A stretch of DNA of 32,000 nucleotides from an uncultured bacterium (GCA_963699255.1 OY969425.1:1530001-1562000), one strand, 5' to 3'; shown: positions 2,434 to 16,500, counted from the stretch's first letter. Translations and numbers: made by a program. Notes: generated by a model not told the origin, from the letters alone.

Positions 2434-3758
2434 CGATTATTTTTTATCAACGCCGTTAAACTGGTTTTGGTGTTCAACTTCGGGTTATCCAGAACTTTAT
2501 CAAGCAGCTTGTTCAGTGCTTTGCCGACCTTCGGCCCGGGGCCGATGCCCAGGATCCTCATCACGTCGTTGCCGTCAAGAGCCAGGTCCCTTACATGGAG
2601 CGCGTTCTGCTCCTGGATTATCTTTTTTATTCCTTTCCTGAGATCTTTCGGATATCCGGGCTCCACGTCCCTTCCCATGGACCTGATATCCGCTATACGG
2701 AGATCAAAAAGATCGTTGACGCGGTCCAGTCCCACGCGGATCATGAACCGCCTTATAGCGGAATCGGACCATTCTTTCGTGTAATTGAACATGTGGTTCT
2801 TTATCATATTTGTCACGTAATAGATATGTTCGTTGCTGAATTTGAGCCGTTTCATTATCTTTGCCGCGATGTCCGCGCCTTTGTTCTCGTGGCCGTAAAA
2901 AGTGTTCTTCACCTTGCACCGCGGCTTGGCGATGTCGTGAAGAAGGGCGGCGAGCCTCAGGACCGGCCTGTCTTTTGAAACTTCGTCGCAGGTGTAGAGG
3001 TTGTGCCAGTAGACGTCGTCCTTATGGAAGGGCCTGGGCTGTTTTACGCCGATGCCTTTTAAAAGCTCGGGAATGTAAATTGTAAGGAGTCCCGACTTTC
3101 TCATCAGGTCAAGCCCGATCGACGGCTTGTCCGCTTCGAGCATCCTCATCAATTCATCGTGCACTCTTTCCGGGGAAACTTTTTTCGCGACTCTCAGGCA
3201 TTTGGGGATGGCTTTAAGCGTTTTATCTTCGATCCTGAAACCAAGTTTTGCCGCGAAACGGCAGGCCCTGACGGGGCGCAGCCCGTCTTCCATGAATCTT
3301 TCCACCGGATCTCCGACCGCCCTGATGAGTTTTGCTTTCAGGTCTTTTTGCCCGCCGAAGATATCTACAAGTTCCCTGGCCGTCGGGTCATATGCGATGG
3401 CATTGATGGTGAAATCCCGCCTTGATAGGTCCTTGCGGAGGTCCTTTGAGAACGTGACTTTGCTGGGATGTCTTCCGTCGATATATCTTTCATCGGAGCG
3501 GAAAGTGGTGATCTCATATGGGATCTTATTGATAATAACGGTGACCGTTCCGTATTTTATTCCGGTAGGGACGACCTTTTTGAACAGCTTTGTTACTTGG
3601 GCGGGAGTTGCGTCGGTCGTCAGGTCCCAGACTTTCGGCTTAAGTTTAAGCAGGAGGTCGCGCACCCCGCCGCCGACGATGTAGCACTGGAAACCTGCGC
3701 GTTTGATGGTTTTTATAAGACCTATAAGGTCTTTCGGGAAAGCTTTATTGTTTATCAT
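2430..3758 (-). CDS. cca: CCA-adding tRNA nucleotidyltransferase / poly(A) polymerase family protein with C-terminal HD region
   Basis: 442-aa ORF with CYIVGGGVRDLLL, DLTTDATP and RRDFTINA nucleotidyltransferase motifs, plus LLHDIAKP (HD). Confidence 0.8.
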   Translation of the reverse strand: MINNKAFPKDLIGLIKTIKRAGFQCYIVGGGVRDLLLKLKPKVWDLTTDATPAQVTKLFKKVVPTGIKYGTVTVIINKIPYEITTFRSDERYIDGRHPSKVTFSKDLRKDLSRRDFTINAIAYDPTARELVDIFGGQKDLKAKLIRAVGDPVERFMEDGLRPVRACRFAAKLGFRIEDKTLKAIPKCLRVAKKVSPERVHDELMRMLEADKPSIGLDLMRKSGLLTIYIPELLKGIGVKQPRPFHKDDVYWHNLYTCDEVSKDRPVLRLAALLHDIAKPRCKVKNTFYGHENKGADIAAKIMKRLKFSNEHIYYVTNMIKNHMFNYTKEWSDSAIRRFMIRVGLDRVNDLFDLRIADIRSMGRDVEPGYPKDLRKGIKKIIQEQNALHVRDLALDGNDVMRILGIGPGPKVGKALNKLLDKVLDNPKLNTKTSLTALIKNNR

Positions 3759-3816
3759 TGCGATAAATCTTACAGGAGAGGCTTATATATGTAAAGTAGA
3801 TGGAATCGTTGAGGTT

Positions 3817-3993
3817 GGTAATTAGGTGAGGGTAAAGAGGCCAGTATGGAAGTTGGGGTTAGGGTTGGGCCACACACTTCCAATCCTTACTTCTATACTG
3901 GCTTCCTAGCCTTTACCTAATTTTCTGGTTTTCAGGGTTGGGCCACACACGTCCAAACCTAACTTCTATACCGGCTTCCTAACCCTAACCTAA
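3817..3993 (+). repeat. Long imperfect hairpin (arms 3822-3853 / 3889-3920) followed by a second copy of the 53-nt right-arm module (3869-3921 and 3941-3993)
   Basis: In my hand pairing of the two 32-nt arms, 25 positions are Watson-Crick, 5 are G-T/T-G and 2 are mismatches. Module 3941-3993 matches the reverse complement of 13684-13736 at 49/53 positions. Confidence 0.7.
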
Positions 3994-4079
3994 TACCTAA
4001 CTTCAATAATATGGCTAAACGATGTATAATCATGCATAGCAATTGGTTATAGGTCCTTGCTTAACCAAAGCTGGTTTCT

Positions 4080-4436
4080 GGGGGTGTAAGGGTTTTGACG
4101 GGAAAGCGGGGGACCGGGTTGCGAGCCAAGGATGATACTGTCCTTGTAAAAACGTATCAAAACACAAACGCAAATCAAGAATTTGCACTTGCTGCCTAAT
4201 AAATAACGGCGGCTTCGTCTCTTAGGCCTCTTTCGGCAGGGCTTAAATAGACGTTATTTTGCCGGATACTGTTCTGCCCTGTTTGTGGAGCAGAATGGGA
4301 AAACTTTCATAAACTAGCGTAAGATGCGCCCCGCCTTGGGCATATTCTTAAGCGAACTAAAATATAAAGGACACGCTCGTAGTAACCTGATCTTATGCTT
4401 TTTCGGACGAGGGTTCGACTCCCTCCACCTCCACCA
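4080..4436 (+). ncRNA. ssrA: tmRNA (SsrA), 357 nt
   Basis: 5' GGGGGTGTAAGGGTTTTGACGGG and 3' GGACGAGGGTTCGACTCCCTCCACCTCCACCA. The 7-bp acceptor stem GGGGGUG/CACCUCC includes the G3-U pair, and a T-arm GAGGG-TTCGACT-CCCTC is present. The tag reading frame ends GCA AAT CAA GAA TTT GCA CTT GCT GCC TAA TAA (..ANQEFALAA**, 4170-4202); the resume codon is uncertain. Confidence 0.9.
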
Positions 4437-4940
4437 TGAAGTATTCCCCGCCTTCGGCAGGTAAACTTCATGGCGGGCCTTTGATATGAAATATAGCTAT
4501 CTATTCTACTTTTGTTATGGGGAATTACTTCATGGTCCACCAAGCTATAGCTTCGAATTATCGTTACAATCGATCAGATTTGTCGAGGGGAGTAGGTCGC
4601 GCAGCGACCGTTGAGGGGTGAAACCCCTCAAGGCCGGAACGCAGCCAGCTTCATAACATATCGTGGTGAGACTCCCCTCCACCTCCACCATGAAGTATTC
4701 CCCGCCTTCGGCAGGTAAACTTCATGGCGGGCCTTTGATATGAAATATAGCTATCTATTCTACTTTTGTTATGGGGAATTACTTCATGGTCCACCAAGCT
4801 ATAGCTTCGAATTATCGTTACGATCGATCAGATTTGTCGAGGGGAGTAGGTCGCGCAGCGACCGTTGAGGGGTGAAACCCCTCAAGGCCGGAACGCAGCC
4901 AGCTTCATAACATATCGTGGTGAGACTCTCCTCACCTCCA
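4417..4940 (+). repeat. Tandem duplication (period 254 bp, two units). Each unit ends in a copy of the tmRNA 3' terminus, and the third copy is degenerate.
   Basis: Unit bodies 4437-4669 and 4691-4923 differ at one base (a4568 vs g4822). GACTCCCTCCACCTCCACCA (tmRNA, 4417-4436) recurs as GACTCCCCTCCACCTCCACCA (4670-4690) and degenerately as GACTCTCCTCACCTCCA (4924-4940). Confidence 0.9.
4582..4637 (+). repeat. Twin-hairpin module GGGGAGTAG / hairpin 1 / CGTTGAGGGG-loop-CCCCTCAA, with a second copy at 4836-4891 and an inverted copy at 17514-17573
   Basis: The sequence is GTCGAGGGGAGTAG-GTCGC-GCA-GCGAC-CGTTGAGGGG-TGAAA-CCCCTCAA. The inverted copy keeps the flanks, but its hairpin-1 stem is CCCCGAC/GTCGGGG. 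Confidence 0.7.
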
Positions 4941-4954
4941 TTTTTACTTTCTTG

Positions 4955-5151
4955 CTTAATACAAAAGCATTTCCTTTCCACTTTCTTTTACCAGAAAAGA
5001 AAGTGGAGCAAAGAAAGCTGGCCTAAGGGGAGAACCCCCTTAGGTATCCCCCTTTCAGCTCACAAAACTCAGCCGACTCGCCCTTCAGGCTCGCGGCTTC
5101 AAACAGTTGCTCGCAAGGTAAGGAATTACATCCGGAATTAAATATAAACAT
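4955..5151 (+). repeat. Dispersed ~197-bp multi-hairpin repeat, copy A (the inverted copy B is at 17682-17879)
   Basis: Hand alignment to the reverse complement of 17682-17879 is collinear over the whole length with scattered substitutions. Copy A contains the hairpins CCACTTTCTTTT-ACCAG-AAAAGAAAGTGG and CTAAGGGG-AGAA-CCCCTTAG. Confidence 0.8.
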
Positions 5152-5472
5152 CCCGAAGGGATTCCTTGTTAGGCCTTCTGTTTGAGCCGTACGAGGCCGA
5201 GCGCAGCGAGGACGAGAAGGCGAGTCAAGGCCGTCGGGGGTACAGGGGGCGGGCCCCCTGTCGGCGTTCTTTTCCCCATTTTCTTTCGCTGCTGAAAGAA
5301 AATGGGCGGGAAGAGAGGGGAAGTCTTATGCAACCACAAAAATATCCACGTAAGGGCAGCGCCCATCGTCACGAAAACTTTAGTTTAACATTTGCGATTT
5401 TTCACCCAAAAGCCGCTTGCCAATTTTATCCCTCGGTGTAGGATTGCCCCGGACTCAAAAGGAGGAATATTT

Positions 5473-6108
5473 ATGCTGAAAACAATAAAAGCTATCATTG
5501 CAGTCTGCATGGTATTTTCCATTATCCCGCTTCTCTGCGGGTGCTGCTGCGGCGGTTTGGATATAAAAGACACGTCGGGGATAAGGGATTACCTGTCCAC
5601 GCAGGCCAGGTGCGAGCTGCTTGCCATCAGGATAAAGAAGTACTATTCGACGGCGCCGCAATACCAGAAGGCGGAAGCCGCGTACAACACGGCGGCTGCC
5701 TACGGCAACGCATACATGGCGGACCTGATAGTTTCGATCAAGACCAGCCGGGTGGTGGATGTGCCGGATGAAGCGTTCAAAAGCTCCGATCTATTCGCGA
5801 AGATGCAGAGTTTCCTGGCTTATGAAGCGTTAACGAACCAGAAAGCGGAAGTTCCCGCAGGGCAAAAGCCGAAAGCACTGGGCGTTTCCCCTTCGGAAGT
5901 GATAGCGGCTGAAGACGCGGTAAAGGGAGCGATGGGGATTTTTGCGAGCATGCAGGACCGCATTCAGGCGGAAACGGACGCCAATTTGAAGGTGCTGGAG
6001 GAGGAGTGGTTCAGCAGGGTATATTGGAACTCTTTTGATAAAACGACCGAGGATTCGTTCAATATGAAATGGACGAGATCGACACAGGCGACGGGGAAGA
6101 CAAAATAA
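5473..6108 (+). CDS. hypothetical lipoprotein
   Basis: ATG at 5473 is preceded by AAGGAGG. The N-terminus MLKTIKAIIAVCMVFSIIPLLCGCCCGG resembles a signal peptide plus lipobox. I chose this start instead of the longer track ORF that begins at 5392. Confidence 0.6.
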   Translation: MLKTIKAIIAVCMVFSIIPLLCGCCCGGLDIKDTSGIRDYLSTQARCELLAIRIKKYYSTAPQYQKAEAAYNTAAAYGNAYMADLIVSIKTSRVVDVPDEAFKSSDLFAKMQSFLAYEALTNQKAEVPAGQKPKALGVSPSEVIAAEDAVKGAMGIFASMQDRIQAETDANLKVLEEEWFSRVYWNSFDKTTEDSFNMKWTRSTQATGKTK

Positions 6109-6254
6109 CAGTTCATTTGAGCCGGAAACGCTGTTGTTCGCGATACAATATTCTGCGCTAGCCTCTTGACCCTTGTCCCTTGCTCTTACCAACCCTCCTC
6201 CTTGTCTCCTTCTTTGCATAAGAGTAGAATTGACCTAATAAAACAGGAGAAAAT

Positions 6255-7193
6255 ATGGCAGAAGAGCCAAGGAAAATATCATTTCAAGAAGCTATCGACA
6301 CATGTGTGCCTTTTTATAATAACGCTGCATTAGAACAAAAGTTTGATGAATTTATTGAGGCGAAAGCTGCTGGCATATCTGCTTATGCTGACGATGAAAC
6401 ACAAGAGATTTCTTTAGATAAAGTAATTTCTTTTTTGAGGGATCAAGAAGATGGACTAGAAATGATATTGGGCATTCTTCATATTCCAGAAGAAAAATTT
6501 AAACGAATAGTTACCCTATTGAGAAAGATTGATGGATCTTTCAAGACAGAATGGGGCATTGACAAGATTAAGGAGTTAATTCAAAAGAAAGACGATTTCG
6601 CTAAGAATATAGCACATATATTTATTGACGGCAAAAATGATGCAACTTTAATAGAATATCTCCCAAAAACTTATCGAGAACGGTTAAATCTAAGATCTTT
6701 GCACAAAGAAGAAGCTCGAGAGGATATTGTAATAAGGCTAAAAGATCAATATATAGGAACATACAGCAATTGGAAGGGCGATCTCATTGAAGGGATTATT
6801 AAGGCGAAACTGGAGAAAATAAAAAGTCTTTATGGAATTCCATATGTTGCTGGGCTTACTCCTTTGATTGATGTTACTGTTGATTGGGCCATTCCTAACT
6901 TAGAAGATCCTTATGTTATAATAATGTCTTCTTATCAAGAGACCACCTCAAGTGGGCAGTCAACAAAAGCAAGGGATATGATGGCTTGTTATCAGAAAAT
7001 AGATCTTAGAAATATTCAGCGAGGTGAAAATAGGGCTTTTGTGAATTTTGTTGATGGGGGTGGTTGGCTTGCACGTCAAAATGACTTAAGAAGATTGGTG
7101 GATGGGTGCCATTATTTTCTTAATATTAAGACATTGGATATGCTAGAAAGCATAATATTAAGACATGTTCCCAAACAATATTTTAGTACGTGA
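6255..7193 (+). CDS. putative type II restriction endonuclease (C-terminal region resembles the DpnII/MboI family)
   Basis: 312-aa ORF lying 3 nt upstream of a DNA methyltransferase gene. The tail ..VDWAI..SSGQSTKARD...FVNFVDGGGWLARQNDLRRL...LNIKTLDMLESIIL parallels my recollection of the DpnII C-terminus (DFVI..SGSGSKLNETAR..FMWITDGQGW..NNLRE..NINDLEHNIL). The gene is AT-rich. Confidence 0.5.
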   Translation: MAEEPRKISFQEAIDTCVPFYNNAALEQKFDEFIEAKAAGISAYADDETQEISLDKVISFLRDQEDGLEMILGILHIPEEKFKRIVTLLRKIDGSFKTEWGIDKIKELIQKKDDFAKNIAHIFIDGKNDATLIEYLPKTYRERLNLRSLHKEEAREDIVIRLKDQYIGTYSNWKGDLIEGIIKAKLEKIKSLYGIPYVAGLTPLIDVTVDWAIPNLEDPYVIIMSSYQETTSSGQSTKARDMMACYQKIDLRNIQRGENRAFVNFVDGGGWLARQNDLRRLVDGCHYFLNIKTLDMLESIILRHVPKQYFST

Positions 7194-7196
7194 ACT

Positions 7197-8162
7197 ATGC
7201 ACAATAAATTACTAGATAGATATATTAATAGAGTCCTATTAGGCGATTGTATAAGGATCATGCGGCAGTTGCCAGATAATTCAATTGATATGACGTTTGC
7301 CGATCCACCATTCAATTTAAAGAAGAAATATAATCACTACGAAGACTCAAAAGAAAAAACAGAGTATCTCAATTGGTGCAACCTCTGGATTGATGAGATG
7401 GTGAGAATAACAAAGCCAAGTGGGGCTATCTTTGTGCATAACATACCACGGTGGCTTACCCATTATGCTGAGCATCTTAATAAAACAGCCTATTTTAGGC
7501 ATTGGATTTCTTGGGATTCAGGAGGGGCACTTTTAGGAAAAACATTATTACCTAATCACTATGGCATTTTATATTATACGAAATCTAAATCTTACAAAGA
7601 GTTTAAATTTTATGATATCAGAGCGCCACACAAACGGTGCAGAATATGTAAGGGTTATATAAAAGATTATGGTGGGAAGAAGGATCAAATGCATCCTTTC
7701 GGGATGTTATTATCAGATGTGTGGACTGATATACATAGAATTAGGCATAAAAAGCGAAGAGATGAACATCCATGCCAACTGCCGATCCCCTTGCTAGAAA
7801 GATTGATATTAATGACAACAGATGAGGGGGATGTTGTATTAGATCCTTTTATTGGAACAGGCACAACCGCTGTAGCAGCTAAATCGCTTGGCAGGAGATA
7901 TATTGGAATCGATTTAGATAAAAAATATATTGAAATTGCAAAAAGGAATATCAAAGAAGCGATCGAAACAAAAGTAAGCGGTAAATATGTTTCAATTTAC
8001 TTAAACCAGATACGAACGATGAAAGACGTTGATTTTAAAGAGATACTTAAGAATAAACGTTATAATTATATGGAAAATCATAAAATCTTATTAGATATTA
8101 ATAAAAAAACGCACTCTCATATTATAAGTGTCCCTTCAAATGAATTAGTTATTTCAAAATAG
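7197..8162 (+). CDS. DNA methyltransferase, beta-class (N6-adenine or N4-cytosine; PF01555-like)
   Basis: Motif IV (FADPPF) lies near the N-terminus and motif I (VLDPFIGTGTTAVAAKSLGRRYIGIDL) near the C-terminus. HPCQLPIPLLERLI is also present. Confidence 0.85.
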   Translation: MHNKLLDRYINRVLLGDCIRIMRQLPDNSIDMTFADPPFNLKKKYNHYEDSKEKTEYLNWCNLWIDEMVRITKPSGAIFVHNIPRWLTHYAEHLNKTAYFRHWISWDSGGALLGKTLLPNHYGILYYTKSKSYKEFKFYDIRAPHKRCRICKGYIKDYGGKKDQMHPFGMLLSDVWTDIHRIRHKKRRDEHPCQLPIPLLERLILMTTDEGDVVLDPFIGTGTTAVAAKSLGRRYIGIDLDKKYIEIAKRNIKEAIETKVSGKYVSIYLNQIRTMKDVDFKEILKNKRYNYMENHKILLDINKKTHSHIISVPSNELVISK

Positions 8163-8259
8163 ATTTCTATGAGGGATGAGTTTTTGATTTTGTTTATAAG
8201 CTATATAGGCTGCTGGAGGAAGATAGGATGGTGGAAGCTGTGAAGAAAAGGAGGTTTAA

Positions 8260-8685
8260 ATGAAGAGAAAAAAATCGGGTAAAGGAAAACTGGTAAAGGG
8301 ATATATTCCATCAATATCAAGAGATTTTCTTGAATTTTCTGTATTTAGGGACGAAATTGGGAAAATGCTCAAGGGGAATTCCGGCGTATATGTTTTATAC
8401 AAAAAGAATAAATTATATTATGTTGGTATAGCGGGCGACCTTTTCTGGAGATTGCATCAACACACTAAAGATAAACACAAAGATAATTGGGATAGGTTTA
8501 GTGTGTTTATTATTGCCAAAGGTAGTTATTTGAAAGACATTGAGAGCATGGTCCACCGTATTTCAGAAACAAAAGCTAATGTCGCAAAAGGAAAATTCAA
8601 GGCGCATTATGAATATGACAAAAAAATTAAAAATATTGTGAGAGAAATTTCTCGAAAGATAAGAAAAATCCAGAAATCCCAATAG
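8260..8685 (+). CDS. small GIY-YIG domain protein
   Basis: 141 aa. GVYVLYKKNKLYYVGIAGDLFWRLHQH matches the GIY..YIG..R pattern. An AAGGAGG sequence lies 5 nt upstream of the ATG. Confidence 0.6.
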   Translation: MKRKKSGKGKLVKGYIPSISRDFLEFSVFRDEIGKMLKGNSGVYVLYKKNKLYYVGIAGDLFWRLHQHTKDKHKDNWDRFSVFIIAKGSYLKDIESMVHRISETKANVAKGKFKAHYEYDKKIKNIVREISRKIRKIQKSQ

Positions 8686-8999
8686 AATCTTGTATAAAGA
8701 TGGTAAGAATTATTGCTTCTTGTCTTTATGAGTTAAAAGGCCTTTCCCAAGTATATTCTATCTTCCTTTTTACCTTCTTCCCTATACAAACCTACCCGGC
8801 GACTATCCTGAGTTTTGCGAAAGAAACGAAGGGCTTGTTTTGAAAAAGGCAAAGGGCTGCTTCGCCCCTCAGTTAAAGTTGTTTTCATCTCTATAATTGA
8901 ACTGACAAATTATTCCCTATTAAAAGGAGTTCGATCGCTTTATATTGCTGAAAGGGTTGGCAAATTATGGTATATTAAATTAATTGTAGCTGTGTTGAA

Positions 9000-9005
9000 T
9001 ATAAT
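9000..9005 (+). promoter_or_regulatory. candidate -10 box (TATAAT) 6 nt upstream of the OLD gene ATG; no SD
   Basis: The sequence reads TGTTGAATATAATGAATTTATG. Confidence 0.3.
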
Positions 9006-9011
9006 GAATTT

Positions 9012-10697
9012 ATGTATTTTAAGTCAATTCTAATAAAAGGTTATAAAGGATTTTCCGACACGGGAGAAATTCCACTACAAGTGCCTGATGGTACAACCCC
9101 GGGTAGTGGGCTCAATATATTAGCAGGAGAAAACGGCAGCGGAAAAACATCTCTACTAAAAGCAATCAGCTTTTTAACAATTAACAGCTTCTCTGGACAA
9201 AGTAGGATTTCATATTCGGATTTCTTTAATGGCCAAGATATTATTAGTATTATTGGGATTTTGGATGCCACTGTACGATATAAAATGCCCTCACCATGGA
9301 AAAAGGTGCTTGATATTAAAAAGTTCCAAATAGAAATAAAAAAACGCGAAAGAAAAACCCCAGGGAAATATTTATCGCCCCCTTTAACAATATCAAATAT
9401 TCTTGAGCCATCTACACGAAAACCAGAATGGTATAAGGAGGGAGAGATAGGCGATTTTTATCTGGGATTTGATAATGAAAGGTTTGATGATGATGAATTA
9501 AATGTATTTTATTGGGATGAAGATAGAAATAGACAATTAAAAAAAGGATTTTCAACAACCCTTACGCGAATTATTGACGACTTGAATTGGAAATATATTA
9601 AAGGTGCTAACAAAAGGGAGATATATTCTAAATGGGTTGAATTCTCTTCAAAAATAGTAGAAGGGGATATTGTGAAAGATATAAAAACTCTAATGAAAGA
9701 TGTGTTTGGCAGGGAAGATTTATCCAGTCTTAATCTTGAATTATTTAATTTGCAAGAGCCATTTTCGCAAGCATTTTTTGCGCTTTGCAAGGGACAAGAC
9801 TTATTACAAGTGCCCTTGAGTGATTTAGGGTCCGGCGTTGATTTTTTATTTTCAATATTATTTTTAATGGAAATGGCGAAAAAATCAAAAGGAACGATCG
9901 TTTATTGTATTGATGAACCAGAACTGTCTTTGCACCCCCAATGGCAAAAAATCCTTTTTGAGATATTAAAAGATGAGTCAAAAAGAAATCAAATATTTAT
10001 TGCTACACATTCTCCTTATTTTATTGATTTTCAGGTATTGCGAGGATTAAAAAAGCTTGATTATAGGAAAAGTGTAATTTCTATTAACTGTTTAAAGCCC
10101 GGTCAATTGACAGATCCTAAGATGCATGGCCTCTTTAGCTTAGAAAACCGTGAAATTCTTTTTTCAAGAGCAACAATATTGGTAGAAGGATGGGAAGATA
10201 GGAATAGAATTCGGAAATTCCTGCAATCCAATAACAATGATATTTTTGTAATTGATGGTTTACAGAATCTCGAGAGGATAAAGAGGGTGTGCAATGACCT
10301 TGGTATAAACTTTAAGGCAATTGTTGATCTTGACTATTTAAGGAATTATGAGGATATGCTACCCAAATTGGATAGTGATGATATTGAAGCATTGGAAGAA
10401 CTAAAACATTTAAGTTTAATAAAAGAAAGTGCTGTGCGCGATGAAAAGTTGAGCAAAGAAATCTCAAAGGTTATGGAAAAACTTAAAGAGGACAAATTAA
10501 AATTCATGGGGTCAAAAATAACTCTTGCGATGTCAAAAGATGCTGAATATCGAAAAAAAGTTCAAAAAAAGATTGAAGAGCTAAAATCACAAAGTATTTA
10601 TGTTTTGCCTGGGGGTATGATAGAAGATTATTTAAGTCCGGATGGTAAACCTATATCTGAAAAACTAGGCAAAGAATTATTCTCGATAATTTTCTGA
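9012..10697 (+). CDS. OLD-family nuclease (N-terminal ABC-type ATPase plus C-terminal TOPRIM/DUF4435-like domain)
   Basis: 561 aa. Walker A is GENGSGKTS, Walker B is IVYCIDEPELSLHP, and IFIATHSPYFI follows. The TOPRIM-like part reads ILVEGWEDRNRI...VIDG...AIVDLDYL and ...IYVLPGGMIEDYL. No helicase gene is adjacent. Confidence 0.75.
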   Translation: MYFKSILIKGYKGFSDTGEIPLQVPDGTTPGSGLNILAGENGSGKTSLLKAISFLTINSFSGQSRISYSDFFNGQDIISIIGILDATVRYKMPSPWKKVLDIKKFQIEIKKRERKTPGKYLSPPLTISNILEPSTRKPEWYKEGEIGDFYLGFDNERFDDDELNVFYWDEDRNRQLKKGFSTTLTRIIDDLNWKYIKGANKREIYSKWVEFSSKIVEGDIVKDIKTLMKDVFGREDLSSLNLELFNLQEPFSQAFFALCKGQDLLQVPLSDLGSGVDFLFSILFLMEMAKKSKGTIVYCIDEPELSLHPQWQKILFEILKDESKRNQIFIATHSPYFIDFQVLRGLKKLDYRKSVISINCLKPGQLTDPKMHGLFSLENREILFSRATILVEGWEDRNRIRKFLQSNNNDIFVIDGLQNLERIKRVCNDLGINFKAIVDLDYLRNYEDMLPKLDSDDIEALEELKHLSLIKESAVRDEKLSKEISKVMEKLKEDKLKFMGSKITLAMSKDAEYRKKVQKKIEELKSQSIYVLPGGMIEDYLSPDGKPISEKLGKELFSIIF

Positions 10698-10742
10698 GAA
10701 GGGGTTAGGATTAGTAAAACAAAAGAGGATAATTGTTTCAAT

Positions 10743-10788
10743 CCCTTGATATTACTTTCTACAAGATCGATGAAGGCTTGCGCCTGTT
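10743..10788 (-). pseudogene. orphan fragment homologous to the 3' end of CDS 15053..15514
   Basis: 39/46 nt are identical to 15066-15111 in my hand alignment. The fragment encodes ..KQAQAFIDLVESNIKGLK compared with EQAQAFIDLVESHIKEIKS*. An in-frame stop lies immediately upstream of the fragment. Confidence 0.7.
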
Positions 10789-10848
10789 TCTACCAAGAAG
10801 GGTAGGGCTTATTCCACAATCCTTATCGTCCAAAAATCATAGCAAAGT

Positions 10849-10920
10849 AGAGACTAGAAATTGGAGAGCAGAGACTGGAGAGCAGAGACTGGAGAGCAGA
10901 GACTGGAGAGCAGAGACCAG
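10849..10920 (+). repeat. tandem 14-mer GGAGAGCAGAGACT x4 (two heptamers per unit) plus one degenerate leading unit
   Basis: Perfect copies at 10863, 10877 and 10891; the fourth, at 10905, ends in C. Confidence 0.9.
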
Positions 10921-10995
10921 GGGCCAGTGGCTGTAGAATATTTACTATTATCCTTTCTTTCGCAAGAGTATAATCCGACGTTGAGGTGAGGGCAA

Positions 10996-11445
10996 ATGAA
11001 TGAAAAAGAATTTGTGGACCAATGCTTCTCCAACAAACTGCACGGCGTTCCCGACACTATAAGCTCTTTAACGAAAGTTGTTGATGATATTACCTATATG
11101 CTTACTACTCCGGGCCTGATAAATATAACCAGAGAAGATATAAAGGAGATCGCTGATTCAAGTAAACATCTACTGGGCATCTCTGCGGAAGCAAAAGGGA
11201 GATATCGCGCGGAAACGGTGGGGCATGAGCTGGTCTCTCATTACTCAAGCGCTTTCAGCACTAAAGCAGATAGCGCTATTTTCAATGTGACCGGCAGCTC
11301 GGACCTTACATTGTACGAGGTCAACGAAATAGCCGAACAGATCTATCGCGTGGTCCATCCCAGAGCCAATTTTGTTTTTAGCGCAATAATCGACGAGAGT
11401 AAGAAGGATTATCTGAAAACGACAGTGATATTAGGGAATAATTAG
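10996..11445 (+). CDS. FtsZ C-terminal-domain-only protein (lacks the N-terminal GTP-binding domain)
   Basis: 149 aa. ..TTPGLINITREDIKEI...GISAEAKGRYRAETVGHELVS....ADSAIFNVTGSSDLTLYEVNEIAEQIYRVVHPRANFVFSAIIDESKKDYLKTTVILG is collinear with E. coli FtsZ ..TRPGLMNVDFADVRTVM...GSGVASGEDRAEEAAEMAIS...ARGVLVNITAGFDLRLDEFETVGNTIRAF...ATVVIGTSLDP..DELRVTVVATG (from memory). An SD (GAGGTGAGGG) and a TATAAT box lie upstream. Confidence 0.65.
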   Translation: MNEKEFVDQCFSNKLHGVPDTISSLTKVVDDITYMLTTPGLINITREDIKEIADSSKHLLGISAEAKGRYRAETVGHELVSHYSSAFSTKADSAIFNVTGSSDLTLYEVNEIAEQIYRVVHPRANFVFSAIIDESKKDYLKTTVILGNN

Positions 11446-11623
11446 AGCAAAGGGAAGGAAGAAGGCAGAAGTAAGAAGTAAGAAGGCTGAAGGATGAAAG
11501 AAGAAGTAAAAAGAAGCGGGTAGCAGAAGAAGAGAAAAAAGGAGAAGGCGGAAGGGAAAAGGCAGAAGGAAGAAGTAAGAAAGAAGAAATAAGAAGGACG
11601 AAGTAAGAAGGCAGAAGGGGAAA
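11446..11623 (+). repeat. ~180-nt almost pure purine tract made of degenerate GAAGNNN heptamers
   Basis: For example GAAGGCG GAAGGGA AAAGGCA GAAGGAA GAAGTAA GAAAGAA GAAATAA GAAGGAC GAAGTAA GAAGGCA GAAGGGG. It forms the left arm of the inverted repeat around the four-helix-bundle gene. Confidence 0.85.
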
Positions 11624-11986
11624 TCATATAAGATGACTGGAAGGATTTGATTTGGCGGTCTTAAGAGAGGCGACGATTATCGAAGTTATCTCGTTTGCCT
11701 CATCCAGCAAGGGCCGGACCTTTTCAGCAGGGATAAGACAACTTTCAATTATTAACTCAAGCCAATAGATCGTCTCATCCGCCTCTTCCAAAACTATCCC
11801 AAGCTTTGCGATGAACTCGACTTTTGACCTCGCCCTTAAACAGGCCCTGTAATTAGCTCCAATTGATGTGGCCGACCTTATTATCTGTTTAGCAATGACA
11901 AAAGAGGTGGTGTTTTTTGGCAGATCATTGGTGAACTTGATTATCTTTAGCGCAAACCTCTTTGTCCGGTCTTTTATCGTCTCCAT
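11624..11986 (-). CDS. four-helix-bundle protein (23S rRNA intervening-sequence protein family, PF05635/TIGR02436-like)
   Basis: 120 aa. ..IIRSATSIGANYRACLRARSKVEFIAKLGIVLEEADETIYWLELI.. matches the family signature S.GANY.EA..R.S..DF..KL.I...E..ET.YWL.L. Confidence 0.85.
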   Translation of the reverse strand: METIKDRTKRFALKIIKFTNDLPKNTTSFVIAKQIIRSATSIGANYRACLRARSKVEFIAKLGIVLEEADETIYWLELIIESCLIPAEKVRPLLDEANEITSIIVASLKTAKSNPSSHLI

Positions 11987-12016
11987 GATCTCTTCTCCCT
12001 CATTCTCATTTCATAT

Positions 12017-12107
12017 TTCTAACTTCTAACTTCTAACTTCTAACTTCTAACTTCTAACTTCTAACTTCTAACTTCTAACTTCTAACTTCTAACTTCTTAT
12101 TTCTTAC
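12017..12107 (+). repeat. tandem heptamer TTCTAAC x11 perfect, then TTCTTAT and TTCTTAC
   Basis: Direct count from 12017 to 12093. The complement reads GAAGTTA, one mismatch per unit from the GAAGTAA units of 11446-11623. Confidence 0.95.
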
Positions 12108-12646
12108 TTTATAAACCCGATCTTGCTTGGCTTTCCTGTTTTCTCAATGGTCAACTTTCGAATATCTCGTACGAGCTCGCGAATGTCGCTATCATGCTTC
12201 AAAACTCGCTTTTCCAGCTGCTCGAACTTTACGGACAATTCCTTGCTGTTCGCCATTATTTGGCGAAGCCGTGAAAATGTCCTCATTATCAGTATGTTTA
12301 CATCTATTGCTCTTTGGCTGTTTAGGACAGATGACAGCATGAGGATCCCGTGTTCCGTAAAGGCATAGGGAAGATAGCGCCTGCCGCCATATTTTAAGGC
12401 CACAAATTGTGACCTTGAACTTGAGGTTGCAAAATGCAACCTCAAGTTTTCCGCTTCATCCCTGGTTAATTGGAACATAAAATCTTCAGGGAACCTTTTT
12501 ATGTTTCTCCTAATCTGTTGATTTAGATACTTTGTTAATACTCCATAGAGGCCTGCTAAATCCATATCCAGCATCACTTTTTGCCCGCGGATGACATATA
12601 TCTTATTTTCGATCAATTCGATCGGAACTATTTCCATTTCATTCAT
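12104..12646 (-). CDS. ORF6N (KilA-N-like) domain DNA-binding protein
   Basis: IRGQKVMLDMDLAGLYGV.TKYLNQQIRRNIKRFPEDFMFQL...RSQFVALKYGGRRYLPYAFTEHGILMLSSVLNS.RAI.VNI.IMR.F. I chose the start at M14 (12646) because AAGGAG lies 8 nt upstream. Confidence 0.8.
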   Translation of the reverse strand: MNEMEIVPIELIENKIYVIRGQKVMLDMDLAGLYGVLTKYLNQQIRRNIKRFPEDFMFQLTRDEAENLRLHFATSSSRSQFVALKYGGRRYLPYAFTEHGILMLSSVLNSQRAIDVNILIMRTFSRLRQIMANSKELSVKFEQLEKRVLKHDSDIRELVRDIRKLTIEKTGKPSKIGFIK

Positions 12647-12756
12647 GATAATTGCTCCTTTTACGATAGTATCAGCAATTAACATGCCAGGAAAGTGAAC
12701 TCAAGTATTTATATTTGTTGTTGGGGGATTCGACAGTTGTAGAGGATTAAGGCAGA

Positions 12757-12857
12757 GGAGGAGACCAGAGATCAGAGACCTGAGACCTGAGACAAGAGAC
12801 CAGAGACTAGAGACCTGAGACCCGAAATCTGATCTCCGGTCTCCAGTCTCTAATCTC
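12757..12857 (+). repeat. heptamer-built hairpin: (AGACNNG)x9 left arm, shorter complementary right arm CTGATCTCCGGTCTCCAGTCTCTAATCTC
   Basis: The sequence splits as AGACCAG AGATCAG AGACCTG AGACCTG AGACAAG AGACCAG AGACTAG AGACCTG AGACCCG / ATCTCCG GTCTCCA GTCTCTA ATCTCAT. The right arm resembles 14547-14576. Confidence 0.8.
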
Positions 12858-13626
12858 ATTCCACGATCCTAATCGTCCAGAAGTCATCAGCCAAATTCTC
12901 GTTCTCAAGGTATTCATATGGCAAAGTAAAATATCCCTTCATTCCCCAGCCGGGGCCCCAGGAATTCCGAACAATAAAAAACCGATTTTCATCGTCATAT
13001 CCGACAGCCATTACCGCATGCCCGCCTTCCATCCTTTCATCCGGCCCGGGCATACTTGCGTGCCCGGTCTTTGCCACGGCCTGGGTCATGAAACTCTCAT
13101 ACACGGAAAATCCGAACACGAACGGGTATCCCGACGCAATACAGCCTTTCATCTGGTTGGCGAGCCGGCTTACACGCTGGTATAAAACAACCTTGTGCTT
13201 CACGGCATTCTGATAGCACGATTCCGAAGGCTTCTGGGCGAATTTCGCGATATCATACTGCCATAACTTCTCGGGACAATCACCCTGCTTCCCCACACTC
13301 TTGATCCCATCCCTGATCTGCGCGCCGCTGTCGGAGCTGACGGAGTGCTCCATCACGCGCTCGTTATAGTAAATGAACAGGCGGGAAGGCATGAAGTATT
13401 TTTCCTTCTGCTTTATCTGCTCGAATTCCATCGCCGCAGCTATGGCGTTCGCCGTGCAGCTGCCCAGCTGGCCCTGATCGTATATATCAGGACATTGGGA
13501 GCGCAGATCGACTTTCGCCGGAAGCTTCGCGATCCATTCCAGAGGCGCAGCATACGAGTGATCCCGGCTGTCCGGGACATCCGGCAGCCAGCCGAAGGAT
13601 CTTATTAGTTTAGCTTCAGCGCTCAT
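12856..13626 (-). CDS. C1 (papain-like) cysteine peptidase, with no signal peptide or long propeptide
   Basis: 256 aa with DQGQLGSCTANA (catalytic Cys), GGHAVMAVGYDD (His) and VRNSWGPGWGMKGYF. Confidence 0.85.
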   Translation of the reverse strand: MSAEAKLIRSFGWLPDVPDSRDHSYAAPLEWIAKLPAKVDLRSQCPDIYDQGQLGSCTANAIAAAMEFEQIKQKEKYFMPSRLFIYYNERVMEHSVSSDSGAQIRDGIKSVGKQGDCPEKLWQYDIAKFAQKPSESCYQNAVKHKVVLYQRVSRLANQMKGCIASGYPFVFGFSVYESFMTQAVAKTGHASMPGPDERMEGGHAVMAVGYDDENRFFIVRNSWGPGWGMKGYFTLPYEYLENENLADDFWTIRIVE

Positions 13627-13683
13627 GTTTTTTCGGGGATATTATAAGCCTTTCTTGGGGAAGGAGACAAGGTCATTTGGAAA

Positions 13684-13783
13684 ATTAGGTGAGGGTTAGG
13701 AAGCCGGTATAGAAGTTAGGATTGGAAGTGCGTGGCCTAACATCTTAACCTAACCACCATACCGGTATCTTTACCTTCACCTA
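13684..13783 (+). repeat. long imperfect hairpin of the same family as 3817-3993
   Basis: The left arm 13684-13736 is the reverse complement of 3941-3993 (49/53). The right arm CCTAACCACCATACCGGTATCTTTACCTTCACCTAA pairs with it imperfectly. Confidence 0.75.
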
Positions 13784-13987
13784 ACAACCATTTTCAGAAT
13801 TGAACTGGTCACAATTTGTGACCGGTTGTCGAAATAGGCGACTATTGTCAGAAAACGCTACAAATACACATCAAATTTGGCTCAATTTACGTATGGTATA
13901 TTGGCAAAATAATTGCTGCTATTATCCTTAAGAGGATCCTTTTGGAAAGAGGTGGTGCCAATTTGGCACCACCTATCGGAGGCAAAT

Positions 13988-14516
13988 ATGTCAGATGCAC
14001 TCGTTACTCAAGAAACAATTGAAAGCAGAATACTCGTCATAAGAGGCCATAAGGTGATGATTGATAGAGATTTGGCGGAATTGTATGGAGTTTCGACTAA
14101 GAGATTGAATGAACAGGTAAAAAGGAACATTGAAAGATTCCCAGCAAACTTCATGTTTCAACTGTCAGAACAGGAAAAATTAGAGGTGGTCGCAATTTGC
14201 GACCACCTATCTGATCTCAGATTTTCACATCAATTACCCTATGCTTTTACCGAGCATGGGGTAGCCATGCTATCCAGCGTCTTAAATAGCGATAGGGCTG
14301 TCAAAATGAGCATATTTATCATCAATACTTTTATCCGCCTAAGACAGATACCTGTATAGCCATAAAGAATTATCAGAAAAACTGGATAAGGTCGAAGAAA
14401 GAGTGCTGCTTCATGATAAAGCGATAATTGCGATCGATCATGCGATATCAGAACTGTCCGCGCCTAAACCGGGCAAAGAAAAGAAAATAGGGTTTATTAA
14501 AGAGGGAGGAGAATAG
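13988..14516 (+). pseudogene. ORF6N domain gene, frameshifted near 14350-14360 (or a sequencing error)
   Basis: The ATG at 13988 follows GGAGG. IRGHKVMIDRDLAELYGVSTKRLNEQVKRNIERFPANFMFQL...LPYAFTEHGVAMLSSVLNSDRAV..IFIINTFIRLRQI is followed by a stop. Another frame then continues HKELSEKLDKVEERVLLHDKAI...KPGKEKKIGFIKEGGE*, which matches the tail of the 12104 paralog. The 529-nt length is not a multiple of 3. Confidence 0.75.
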
Positions 14517-14573
14517 AGACCTGAGATCAGAGAGTAAGAGATATTTAGTCTCTGGTCTCCGATCTCTAATCTC
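14515..14573 (+). repeat. heptamer-built hairpin AGAGACCTGAGATCAGAGAGTAAGAG / ATATTT / AGTCTCTGGTCTCCGATCTCTAATCTC
   Basis: Dyad symmetry is visible by eye. The right arm is similar to 12829-12857. Confidence 0.75.
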
Positions 14574-14590
14574 ATTGGAATAACGGAGGT

Positions 14591-15007
14591 TTATCTGGGT
14601 TTTATGGCCAGCCGAATATTCGGGATATCACTTAGAAAATGCGTGACCACGGCGATCGATATGGGCAGAAGATACGCGGGCCAGAAACGATAAGCCAAAA
14701 ACGGCAAAGCCAGGAATATAGCTATGTGACTTATCATGGCTAATTTTATTACTCCGGTATCGGTCAGCGTTTGCATGAACAGCTTGAACTCGGTGAATAT
14801 TCTTATAGGGTTATAGAATCTGCGGAATGAGGGGATGGAGACGCCCTTTATAGCGACCCAAAATACAACATCAATGTCTATTGCCGCTGAAACCGCGCCT
14901 GCGATCAACGCGCAGCTTGCTATTGCCGGATAGTTTTGCGGATATGCGACCGCAGCGACCGGGACCGCCGCAAGCGCGGATATCATAAAATGATCCTGAG
15001 GCAACAT
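14591..15007 (-). CDS. hypothetical integral membrane protein
   Basis: 138 aa with several hydrophobic segments and a C-terminal THFLSD. I am not confident of any family assignment. Confidence 0.5.
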   Translation of the reverse strand: MLPQDHFMISALAAVPVAAVAYPQNYPAIASCALIAGAVSAAIDIDVVFWVAIKGVSIPSFRRFYNPIRIFTEFKLFMQTLTDTGVIKLAMISHIAIFLALPFLAYRFWPAYLLPISIAVVTHFLSDIPNIRLAIKPR

Positions 15008-15052
15008 GGGTTTATTCTAACAAATTATGTCTATTGTGAAAAGTTGTAAGAG

Positions 15053-15514
15053 CTAACTCTTAATTTCCTTGATATGGCTTTCGACAAGGTCGATGAAGGC
15101 CTGAGCCTGTTCGGGGGTAAGGTTGCTTTCAAGAAGATCGGCCAGCGCTTCCCAGGCTTCCGCTTCTTCCATCAGCTCTTTGTTGCTCTTTATCTCATCA
15201 AGCACCGCGTCTATCTCTTTCTGCATCCTCTTGTTAACTTCTTCCATCGCGGCCTCGGGATTCGTCATTCCCGTTTCCTCTATGGCGCGCTCGATTATGT
15301 CTCCCATCGAAAGCTCTCTCTCTTTCGCTTCCATCGCCAGAGCCGCGAAACGGACAGCCATCGCGTGGGAATCAAGGGCCTGTAATCCTTTTTCGCCGCC
15401 TTTGGTCGGCGTGGGCAGGGCAGGGCGCGTGGTTTCTGTCCTTTCCTCTTTCTTCGGAGGGACCGGCGGTACTGCCGGAGGGGTAATGCCTGAAGGCGGT
15501 ATATTGATTCCCAT
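15053..15514 (-). CDS. hypothetical protein (Pro-rich N-terminus, acidic helical C-terminus)
   Basis: 153 aa. An SD (GAGGT) and a TATAAT box (15532-15537) lie upstream. Its 3' end is duplicated at 10743-10788. Confidence 0.6.
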   Translation of the reverse strand: MGINIPPSGITPPAVPPVPPKKEERTETTRPALPTPTKGGEKGLQALDSHAMAVRFAALAMEAKERELSMGDIIERAIEETGMTNPEAAMEEVNKRMQKEIDAVLDEIKSNKELMEEAEAWEALADLLESNLTPEQAQAFIDLVESHIKEIKS

Positions 15515-15599
15515 GGTTTTACCTCGGGGAGATTATATATAAATATGTTGCCGAAGGCAACACCTTAATTGGTCATTGTGTAATTGTTAATTGTTAATT

Positions 15600-15803
15600 T
15601 TAAAGGTCGCCTTTTATGACGGTTTTTACTAGCAGCTTGGAGAGGTTCGCTATTGCCGAATCCGGGAGTTTTTTCCCGATGTCATCGTCCTTCAGGATCT
15701 GTTTTGTCGCATCCAGAAGGTCCTGCATCGTGTATGTCTTTTTCCCGCCTTCGCCCTGGTTTTGGCCGCGTGACGCGGGGGCCTGTTGATATGATTTGCT
15801 CAT
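15600..15803 (-). CDS. hypothetical small protein, translationally coupled to smpB
   Basis: 67 aa. Its ATG overlaps the smpB stop (ATGA at 15800-15803). Confidence 0.45.
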
Positions 15804-16267
15804 TTTTTCTTCTGCCTGTCCGCGAAAGCTCTCTCTACCTCCCGCGCCGCTTCTTTTTTCTTGATCTTTTCCCTCTTCTCATACTCTTTCTTGGATTTCG
15901 CGAGCGCAAGGTCGACTTTCACCCAGTTATCCATCAAGTATAGCTTAAGGGGAATTAAAGTTAAACCTTTTTCTTGAACGCGCCCGATCAGCTTCTTCAT
16001 CTCGCCCTTGTTCAGCAGGAGCTTGCGCTCCCTTATCGGGTTCAGGTTGTAACGCCCTCCCTGCTCATAGGGGCTTATGTGCATGTTGTAAAGCCAGATC
16101 TCGCCGTTCTCCACCCGGCCGAAACTGTCCTTGAGGTTCGCTTTTCCCAGCCGTATCGATTTAACTTCCGTGCCCTTAAGGGCTATTCCCGCCTGGAATG
16201 TTTCCAGTACCGTGTAGTCGAAGAACGCTTTGCGGTTTTCTGCCAGGACCTTTTTATAGCGCGGCAT
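15800..16267 (-). CDS. smpB: SsrA-binding protein
   Basis: 155 aa. ..[38 protein letters not shown]......[14 protein letters not shown]...N..P.R.RKLLL...E..KL is a typical SmpB sequence. Confidence 0.9.
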
Positions 16268-16276
16268 AGTTGATGA

Positions 16277-16305
16277 AATATATCACACAAGGAAAGGCAG
16301 TTCAA
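16277..16305 (-). promoter_or_regulatory. candidate promoter TTGAAC-17-TATATT, with the -10 box 9 nt upstream of the smpB ATG; no SD
   Basis: The reverse strand reads TTGAACTGCCTTTCCTTGTGTGATATATTTCATCAACTATG. Confidence 0.4.
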
Positions 16306-16330
16306 TTGAGGGAGGTTGAGGGTAGGGGCC

Positions 16331-16500
16331 AATACAAACACATAACACAAAAGGCATTTCATTCTTACTTTCTTTTGCTTGACCAAAATAAAGTAACAAA
16401 GAAAACTCAAGCGTTTCTAACGAGCTAATTGCTTCGTCCTATAATATTCGCAGCCCTAGAAACGCGTTTTGGTCTTGCTGATAAGCCTCATTATTAAAAC
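16331..16500 (+). repeat. intergenic repeat upstream of smpB, with a related copy upstream of dapB (17407-17650)
   Basis: Shared blocks: AAAAGGCATTTCATTCTTACTTTCTTTTGCTTGAC vs CAAAATGCATTTTCTTCTTACTTTCTTTGTCTTGAC, and ATTCGCAGCCCTAGAAACGCGTTTTGGTCTTGCTGATAAGCC vs ATTCGCAGCGTTAGAAACGCATTTTGGTCTTGTTGTAAGCC. Confidence 0.75.

Follow-up and report, generated by a model that had tools for sequence, protein, structure and literature searches.

A stand-alone C-terminal half of FtsZ in an ssrA-smpB island of an uncultured bacterium belongs to a conserved family under purifying selection

Introduction

Why would a bacterium carry, in addition to its cell division gene ftsZ, a separate gene for only the C-terminal half of the protein? 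The question is raised by an open reading frame (ORF) at positions 10996-11445 of a 32,000-nucleotide stretch of DNA from an uncultured bacterium (GCA_963699255.1 OY969425.1:1530001-1562000); this whole stretch is referred to as the window. The initial annotation, made from the sequence alone, offered two explanations for the 149-amino-acid product: a remnant of a decayed ftsZ paralog, or a functional protein that presents only the bottom face of FtsZ and could cap its filaments. In this study, the ORF was followed up by computational analysis of its product, its relatives, its expression signals, and its neighbourhood. The gene is intact, conserved, and selected, and we tentatively consider its product to be an inhibitor of FtsZ assembly.

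Results

Identity and predicted fold of the encoded protein

The coding sequence (CDS; 10996..11445, plus strand) starts with ATG and encodes 149 amino acids (aa). The only significant Pfam match of the product was FtsZ_C (PF12327; E = 1.8e-13, 51 bits against a gathering threshold of 27 bits, residues 65-146), and its paralogues and orthologues likewise scored above this threshold. The NCBIfam equivalog model for ftsZ, TIGR00065, gave 56.8 bits against a cut-off of 295 bits and covered only profile positions 194-321 of 353. In a sequence search of the PDB, the best matches were all FtsZ, with residues 189-309 of Mycobacterium tuberculosis FtsZ corresponding to ORF residues 27-146 (E = 6e-16). 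An AlphaFold2 (AF2) model built on the family alignment had a mean predicted local distance difference test score (pLDDT) of 92.3 and a predicted template modelling score of 0.84, with every segment at 70 or above. The top Foldseek matches of this model were all FtsZ, and VIA-align placed model residues 20-149 on FtsZ 183-313 (Z = 17.3, 2.5 Å over 129 residues). The window protein therefore corresponds to FtsZ from the C-terminal part of helix H7 through the T7 synergy loop to the end of the C-terminal subdomain; Pfam, the PDB, and the AF2/VIA-align comparison agree with the domain assignment of the initial annotation.

Four parts can be distinguished in the protein. Residues 1-19 make up an N-terminal helix and strand that are specific to the family, residues 22-37 correspond to an H7 of reduced length, residues 38-48 carry the T7 synergy loop (PGLINITRED), and the C-terminal subdomain, which is complete, spans residues 46-148. 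Compared with FtsZ, family members lack 11 residues in H6 and the N-terminal part of H7. The family-specific N-terminus follows the pattern (Y/C)F.NK(L/V)..(V/I)P and takes the form of a helix followed by a short strand in the model. Many structural alignments start at model residue 1 and FtsZ residue ~11, which suggests that the N-terminal element may occupy the place on H7 against which part of the N-domain is packed in FtsZ.

The tubulin-type GTP-binding domain (PF00091, with its G-box) was not found in the window protein, for which Pfam returned FtsZ_C alone, and no coding sequence for a GTPase domain was found upstream of the ORF. The protein stops three residues past strand S10 (VILGNN, followed by the stop codon) and has neither the disordered linker nor the C-terminal peptide; the FtsZ of the host ends with IELPAFLKNI. 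The T7 reading of the initial annotation, PGLINITREDIK versus PGLMNVDFADVR, was compared with the actual E. coli FtsZ (NC_000913.3), to residues 203-212 of which the loop aligns, and proved correct: in E. coli numbering, N207 and D212 (D48 of the window protein) are kept and D209 is changed to Thr, so that of the two catalytic T7 aspartates, D209 and D212, only the latter is present. Hence, the Pfam FtsZ_C domain family includes the window protein, which is nevertheless not an FtsZ, because it has no GTPase domain and no tail and keeps only one of the two catalytic Asp residues.

The host genome, a single 1.77-Mb contig, encodes a canonical FtsZ of 355 aa (L001:1387-2454, minus strand), with which the window protein shares ~38% identity over the common region, as well as a second short copy of 147 aa, which lies ~650 kb away and is 47% identical to the window protein. 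The sole PF00091 match in the genome is the canonical ftsZ, in line with the initial claim that the GTP-binding half is absent. An FtsZ split into two genes was considered and rejected, because the genome contains no orphan GTPase half.

Conservation of the FtsZ interface

The family was mapped onto E. coli numbering using 16 short proteins. The Leu matching E. coli L272 was invariant (16/16); the interface mutation L272E locks FtsZ as a monomer (PMC12754632). The D212 equivalent was Asp in 15 of the 16, and P203-G204-L205 and N207 were largely kept. The position of D209, where the substitution D209C makes FtsZ monomeric (PMC13423816), was Thr in the window subclade only, Asp in eight proteins, Glu in three, and Asn in one; both T7 aspartates were present in 8/16 members.

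The mean identity of the short proteins to the host FtsZ was 0.37 overall (E. coli 188-316). By segment, it was 0.73 in S9, 0.72 in the S8-H10 loop, and 0.57 in the T7 loop, compared with 0.18 in H8-S7-H9 and 0.09 in the H7 remnant. The best-conserved segments are those that build the bottom longitudinal interface. The T7 phage protein Gp0.4 protects FtsZ segments 199-206, 262-270, and 292-303 in hydrogen-deuterium exchange (PMC13423816), and all three lie inside the short protein and coincide with its best-conserved parts.

A conserved family under purifying selection

When 5.8 billion proteins were searched by means of a word index, eight more proteins of 149-150 aa with 45-89% identity were found. 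An exhaustive profile search of 1.84 billion representatives yielded ~10 clusters (50% identity) of 145-155-aa proteins that matched from end to end, the remaining matches being canonical FtsZ or fragments of it. The short FtsZ_C-only family was defined as proteins of 141-155 aa that carry the N-terminal pattern given above, a PGLI(N) T7 loop, and DLTL(Y)EVN, and that end shortly past S10; all of these features were found in the window protein in end-to-end alignments.

Ten copies were available as DNA, and all of their frames were intact (147-151 aa). The ratio of nonsynonymous to synonymous substitution rates (dN/dS; Nei-Gojobori method) was 0.10-0.34 for every pair with unsaturated dS, including values of 0.14 and 0.16 for the window gene against the copies at loci L004 and L084, respectively. 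The short FtsZ_C gene thus represents a conserved family under purifying selection, neither unique to this genome nor drifting neutrally.

In a maximum-likelihood tree of the shared region, all 21 short proteins fell on one side of a branch with a support of 97 in the Shimodaira-Hasegawa-like approximate likelihood ratio test. The short clade met the FtsZ of the host class (Margulisiibacteriota/Saganbacteria), cyanobacterial and Sericytochromatia FtsZs, and a long-branched actinomycetotal FtsZ (L006) in an unresolved fork; the tree came from a quick search over 149 columns, in which long-branch effects are possible. Terminal branches were 0.08-1.6 long in the short family versus 0.01-0.06 for canonical FtsZ of the host class, and the family evolves ~10-30 times faster than FtsZ. 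The family is monophyletic and spans several bacterial families. The two short copies of the host genome are deep paralogues; both have closer relatives in other genomes than they have in each other. Canonical ftsZ was present in nearly all of the 61 genomes compared from this class, whereas the short copy occurred only in the host genome G000 (two copies), in G001, G002, G007, and G050, and perhaps in G060.

A protein of 840 aa (P0012) was examined as a possible fused form and rejected, being a tandem of two full-length FtsZs. With the sequence patterns used, no relative of the short family was found in IMG/VR; therefore, there is no evidence for a phage-borne gene. The ESM Atlas contained further FtsZ_C-only clusters of ~142-145 aa, with 53 members in Bacteria (Bacillota noted) and 220 in Archaea (Thermoplasmatota noted). 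Given these clusters, the stand-alone FtsZ_C architecture may have arisen more than once.

Expression signals and nearby repeats

Immediately upstream of the gene (10967..10995, plus strand) lies a conserved block consisting of GAGTATAAT (-10 element), an 8-nt spacer, TTGAGGTGA (Shine-Dalgarno sequence, SD), and 6 nt before the ATG. Within it, TATAAT occupies 10970-10975, and the SD core GAGGTGA stands 6 nt ahead of the ATG. The arrangement GAGTATAAT-N8-TYGAGGTGA-N5/6-ATG was kept in 5/5 window-type orthologues, and DNA further upstream was unalignable; the -10 element and the SD therefore travel with the gene. The SD and the TATAAT box proposed earlier are thus real, although no -35 element matches them: a consensus scan gave no -35/-10 pair on the plus strand upstream and no intrinsic terminator downstream. 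No inverted repeat was found upstream of the window gene, and the palindrome from the intergenic region between the WYL gene and the paralogue at L002 (described below) had no match there at up to three mismatches.

The initial annotation had also pointed to a 14-mer array upstream. The array exists, as four copies of TGGAGAGCAGAGAC at 10862..10917. As a regulatory element specific to the gene it was rejected: it is absent from the orthologues, and 177 of the 407 tandem arrays that Tandem Repeats Finder detected in the genome have a period of 7, 14, or 21. For these two reasons, it is regarded as ordinary filler. Downstream, a purine-rich degenerate heptamer tract (GAAGGAA, ~23 copies; 11454..11618) fills the convergent intergenic space. 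Heptamer-based repeats also occur in the window at 2299-2359, 12017-12109, 12761-12822, and 15565-15603, and AATGACC is a rotation of the complement of TTGGTCA. The heptamer repeats of this genome recall the STRR (short tandemly repeated repetitive) heptamer repeats of cyanobacteria. The host FtsZ groups with Margulisiibacteriota/Saganbacteria, the sisters of Cyanobacteria.

The ssrA-smpB island in the window

The gene sits in an island hot spot between ssrA and smpB, as judged from the transfer-messenger RNA (tmRNA) gene, the defence block, the repeats, and the smpB gene that surround it. The left anchor is the tmRNA gene ssrA (4080..4436, plus strand), the only match in an Rfam scan of 3500-16500; the right anchor is smpB (15800..16267, minus strand), which lies ~11 kb from the tmRNA gene and not adjacent to it. 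A 254-bp direct repeat (4417-4940; 2.1 copies, 98% identical) begins within the last 20 nt of the tmRNA and looks like duplicated att sites from integration of the island at ssrA. It is followed by a defence block (6255..10697, plus strand) encoding a DpnII-like restriction endonuclease, an N6/N4 methyltransferase, a GIY-YIG protein, and an OLD-family ATPase-TOPRIM nuclease (Old/AriA/GajA-like), with a low GC content of 0.32-0.36 versus 0.475 for the genome. A pair of ~46-nt direct repeats (about 39/46 identical), the left copy at 10743..10788 (plus strand) and the right copy at 15066-15111 in the 3' end of the CDS 15053-15514, brackets a 4.3-kb segment that holds the short FtsZ gene.

Downstream of the short FtsZ gene are genes for a 23S-IVP four-helix protein, two ORF6N proteins, and a papain-like peptidase. 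The papain-family (Peptidase_C1) cysteine protease gene (12856-13626, minus strand) has a counterpart at L005:10942-11709. The two peptidases are 85% identical and both are encoded near a short FtsZ gene, whereas the FtsZ_C genes themselves share only 45%, which suggests that members of different FtsZ_C subclades occupy one and the same hot spot in the chromosome. The ORF6N-domain (KilA-N-like) genes flank the peptidase gene at 12104-12685 (minus strand) and 13913-14359 (plus strand). Their family has 7-8 members in the genome, with six sites outside the window pair, and these genes may be markers of mobile elements.

In PADLOC-DB 2.0, the window protein matched no defence component, with a marginal hit to E1-E2 only (E = 8.4e-4, 16 bits), and no PADLOC model contains an FtsZ_C component; neighbours of the family matched Old/AriA/GajA and AbiU. 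No WYL gene was found within the 32-kb window.

Other loci of the family

The second copy in the host genome (L002; ~881 kb in G000) lies in an operon of the order WYL regulator, FtsZ_C, ClpP, and DprA-like gene, and an identical arrangement was found on a metagenome contig (L087). The FtsZ_C gene of L002 ends 15 nt upstream of the ClpP-like gene, in whose product Ser/His/Asp motifs are recognisable. Helix-turn-helix-WYL-WCX regulators precede family members in three independent loci: L002, L121 (WYL, AIPR/AbiU, FtsZ_C, and a small Cys-rich ORF), and L122 (WYL, two unknown ORFs, FtsZ_C, and a homologous Cys-rich ORF). Elsewhere, the gene follows a type III restriction-modification Mod/Res pair and precedes a DprA-like gene (L086), stands between a PD-(D/E)XK gene and a methylase gene (L004), or is preceded by an integrase fragment, an AAA gene, and an unknown ORF and followed by an unknown ORF and YdjM (L005). 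Across 12 loci, only FtsZ_C recurs, save for the peptidase common to the window and L005. A toxin-antitoxin pairing, such as one of the type IV CbtA/CbeA-like kind, was likewise not apparent: no adjacent antitoxin or effector was conserved across the 12 loci, and the neighbours differ. In one metagenomic protein of 296 aa (P0020), a complete FtsZ_C module of the short family is fused to a coiled coil and to an HNH endonuclease (aa 19-59); the T7 loop of this module reads GLITIDEEE.

Several further features of these loci were recorded. The Cys-rich ORFs directly downstream of FtsZ_C (L121:5275-5583 and L122:7273-7611; 102-112 aa) have no Pfam match, share the motif CxHxW...KC.KCQK.W.DP.LRGIP, and come from two different bacterial families; they could encode a partner protein of the WYL-linked subclade. 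The same DprA/Smf-like gene (DNA_processg_A), atypical in composition and rich in overlapping open frames, closely follows FtsZ_C in different subclades (L002:2640-3197, L086:3314-3814, and L089:937-1554) and may mark a second island hot spot or belong to the mobile unit. At L004:9851-11189, near the FtsZ_C gene of the metagenome-assembled genome MFD01476.bin.2.44, a gene for a Cys/Met-metabolism pyridoxal phosphate enzyme appears to be divided into two ORFs (112 and 267 aa); it may be a pseudogene or reflect an assembly frameshift.

Discussion

A candidate inhibitor of FtsZ assembly

The analysis establishes a selected copy of the FtsZ bottom face, predicted to be stable and to fold independently and equipped with expression signals of its own, in neighbourhoods of the conflict type. 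As for its function, the explanation we favour is that this half-FtsZ, which could not be extended, docks on the GTP face of the host FtsZ and blocks assembly. We rate it a little below an even chance, mainly because of the Thr at position 209 and the constitutive-looking promoter. In the mechanism that we propose, the bottom (T7) interface would dock onto the GTP-bearing top face of the host FtsZ, either on free FtsZ-GTP monomers or at the filament end that exposes the nucleotide. The bound half-subunit could be neither extended nor recruited: in the absence of a top face, nothing would add onto it, and without the membrane-tether peptide it would not join the divisome. Acting as a chain terminator or as a sequesterer of monomers, it would reduce Z-ring assembly, so that division would be delayed or blocked, an outcome from which a mobile element, or a programme of defence or stress response, might benefit. 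With Thr in place of D209, the proteins of the window subclade could be non-hydrolysing or weaker binders, and paralogues with Asp or Glu at this position may trigger GTP hydrolysis in the subunit that they bind.

In favour of such an inhibitor are the match of fold and boundaries to FtsZ 183-313, the identity of the interface, the retention of the L272 and D212 equivalents, the constant length, the purifying selection, the monophyly of the family and its faster evolution relative to the host FtsZ, the lack of an orphan GTPase half, the WYL regulators upstream of members at three loci, and the defence and mobile neighbours. An experimental precedent also exists in that an engineered C-terminal FtsZ fragment retaining H7 binds the N-terminal fragment head-to-tail in a GTP-dependent manner (PMC4496089). 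The early proposal of a bottom-face-only capper in an accessory segment thus fits the interface residues, the defence/mobile island, and this precedent, and it is the capping itself that we infer.

Four observations weigh against this interpretation. The -10 element and SD of the window copy look constitutive, and neither a regulator nor an antidote is encoded next to it, an arrangement not readily expected of a potent division inhibitor. By analogy with D209C, which is monomeric (PMC13423816), the Thr at position 209 may lower the affinity for the top face. The conserved segments are among the most conserved of FtsZ generally, and folding constraints could explain part of the pattern. Finally, SulA, MciZ, and Gp0.4 target the same surface, and its conservation would fit a decoy equally well.

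Were a dominant-negative subunit derived from FtsZ itself indeed to act on the nucleotide face, it would constitute a new mode of Z-ring control and a ready-made tool for studying filament polarity and treadmilling. The host phylum, which is Margulisiibacteriota-like, is little studied. The WYL, restriction, AbiU, and OLD neighbours and the HNH fusion link the division machinery to conflict with mobile elements or phages.

Alternative functions

As the chief alternative, the protein might serve as bait, mimicking the synergy-loop face that phage and other FtsZ inhibitors attack and either soaking these up, which would spare the Z-ring, or sensing them within defence cassettes on behalf of variable effectors (such as ClpP, AbiU, HNH, and OLD). 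Several observations accord with this idea, which we nevertheless regard as rather unlikely. The synergy-loop surface is the binding site of T7 Gp0.4, SulA, and MciZ alike, the segments protected in hydrogen-deuterium exchange are the best-conserved parts of the short protein, and immunity that monitors FtsZ-inhibitor complexes exists (CapRel-Ebc, PMC13423816). The FtsZ_C module is constant while its defence neighbours vary by locus, one relative (P0020) is fused to an HNH nuclease, and a constitutive promoter and the loss of D209 would suit a harmless bait. On the other hand, no effector co-occurs consistently and the FtsZ_C gene alone recurs, a protein with ~38% identity overall to a host FtsZ that is itself highly conserved is a poor mimic outside the interface, the near-invariant catalytic Asp equivalent to D212 has no obvious use in a bait, and FtsZ_C appears in no PADLOC model. 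In a broader version, the protein would be a modular FtsZ-surface sensor or effector of defence islands with interchangeable effectors from the same set, either baiting phage division inhibitors or shutting division down abortively. This we judge somewhat less probable still; if true, it would be the first case in which immunity makes use of a piece of the very cytoskeleton protein that it monitors, and the protein would be the first natural one known to target the nucleotide (top) face of FtsZ.

A function unrelated to FtsZ, in which the FtsZ_C fold has been re-used for another partner or for self-assembly and the interface is conserved for fold stability, would agree with the fast evolution, the family-specific N-terminal element, and the stand-alone FtsZ_C clusters in other lineages, archaea included. 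It is improbable in our view, since folding alone hardly explains the conservation of a solvent-exposed T7 loop with its catalytic Asp and of the L272-equivalent Leu.

Even less credence is given to an adaptor role, in which the half-FtsZ would recruit full-length FtsZ to a partner such as the ClpP paralogue, or would itself be a regulated substrate, and thereby act in FtsZ turnover and not in capping. The close spacing of the paralogue and the ClpP-like gene in this genome and the identical layout at L087 speak for it, and FtsZ is a known Clp substrate (PMC3983244, PMC7327170). However, ClpP is absent beside the window copy and at L088, L089, L004, L005, L084-L086, L121, and L122; because most loci have no adjacent ClpP, the link is confined to one subclade.

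A decaying fragment of a duplicated ftsZ, an origin that the absence of two thirds of FtsZ and the repeat-rich island might have suggested, is refuted by the low dN/dS, the ten intact same-length copies, the conserved start, SD, and -10 element, the compact predicted fold (pLDDT 92), and the monophyly of the family, and we give it almost no weight.

Comparison with known systems

No description of a stand-alone FtsZ_C family was found in the open-access full-text literature. Returning to the proposed inhibitor of assembly, its relation to FtsZ is one of partial homology: from the end of H7 over the T7 loop to the close of the C-terminal subdomain, the two are homologous and superposable, with N207, D212, and L272 kept, whereas the GTP-binding N-domain, the linker, and the C-terminal peptide are missing and a new N-terminal helix and strand are present. 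The half-FtsZ cannot polymerise as FtsZ does. The WYL-FtsZ_C-ClpP operon of the paralogue encodes a protein of the same family, but neither WYL nor ClpP nor a shared operator-like palindrome accompanies the window copy, which carries its own -10 element and SD and belongs to the subclade with Thr at D209.

Extra FtsZ-derived proteins have been considered elsewhere. The truncated FtsZ paralogues of Hyphomicrobiales reportedly have no linker and tail, and on that basis theirs would be the reverse of the truncation in the half-FtsZ. FtsZ1 and FtsZ3 of this order (Agrobacterium) are described as duplications of the FtsZ GTPase protein, and these shortened proteins are likewise proposed to tune or inhibit division (bioRxiv 10.1101/2025.09.29.679267).

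Laboratory versions of the same idea are provided by engineered fragments (PMC4496089) and by the mutants L178E, L272E, D209C, and D212N; FtsZ subunits defective in one face are monomeric or stabilise filaments. These are man-made, in contrast to the half-FtsZ, which is a natural, selected family with its own stabilising N-terminal element.

With SulA, MciZ, T7 Gp0.4, and MipZ, the half-FtsZ shares the proposed outcome, namely that the longitudinal interface is occupied and the addition of subunits is blocked, and inhibitors of this kind are also encoded by small genes, often on stress, phage, or island DNA. No homology to SulA, MinC, SlmA, MciZ, Kil, or CbtA was detected, as Pfam, NCBIfam, and PADLOC returned FtsZ-related matches only. 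SulA, MciZ, Gp0.4, and MipZ are unrelated to FtsZ in sequence and bind its bottom (T7, plus-end) face (PMC13423816, PMC9897490), the C-terminal interface being the plus end that MciZ caps (PMC9897490). The half-FtsZ, in contrast, is itself the bottom face and would bind the opposite, nucleotide face. On this interpretation, it would belong with the protein regulators of FtsZ assembly, as one that is derived from FtsZ and aimed at the opposite face.
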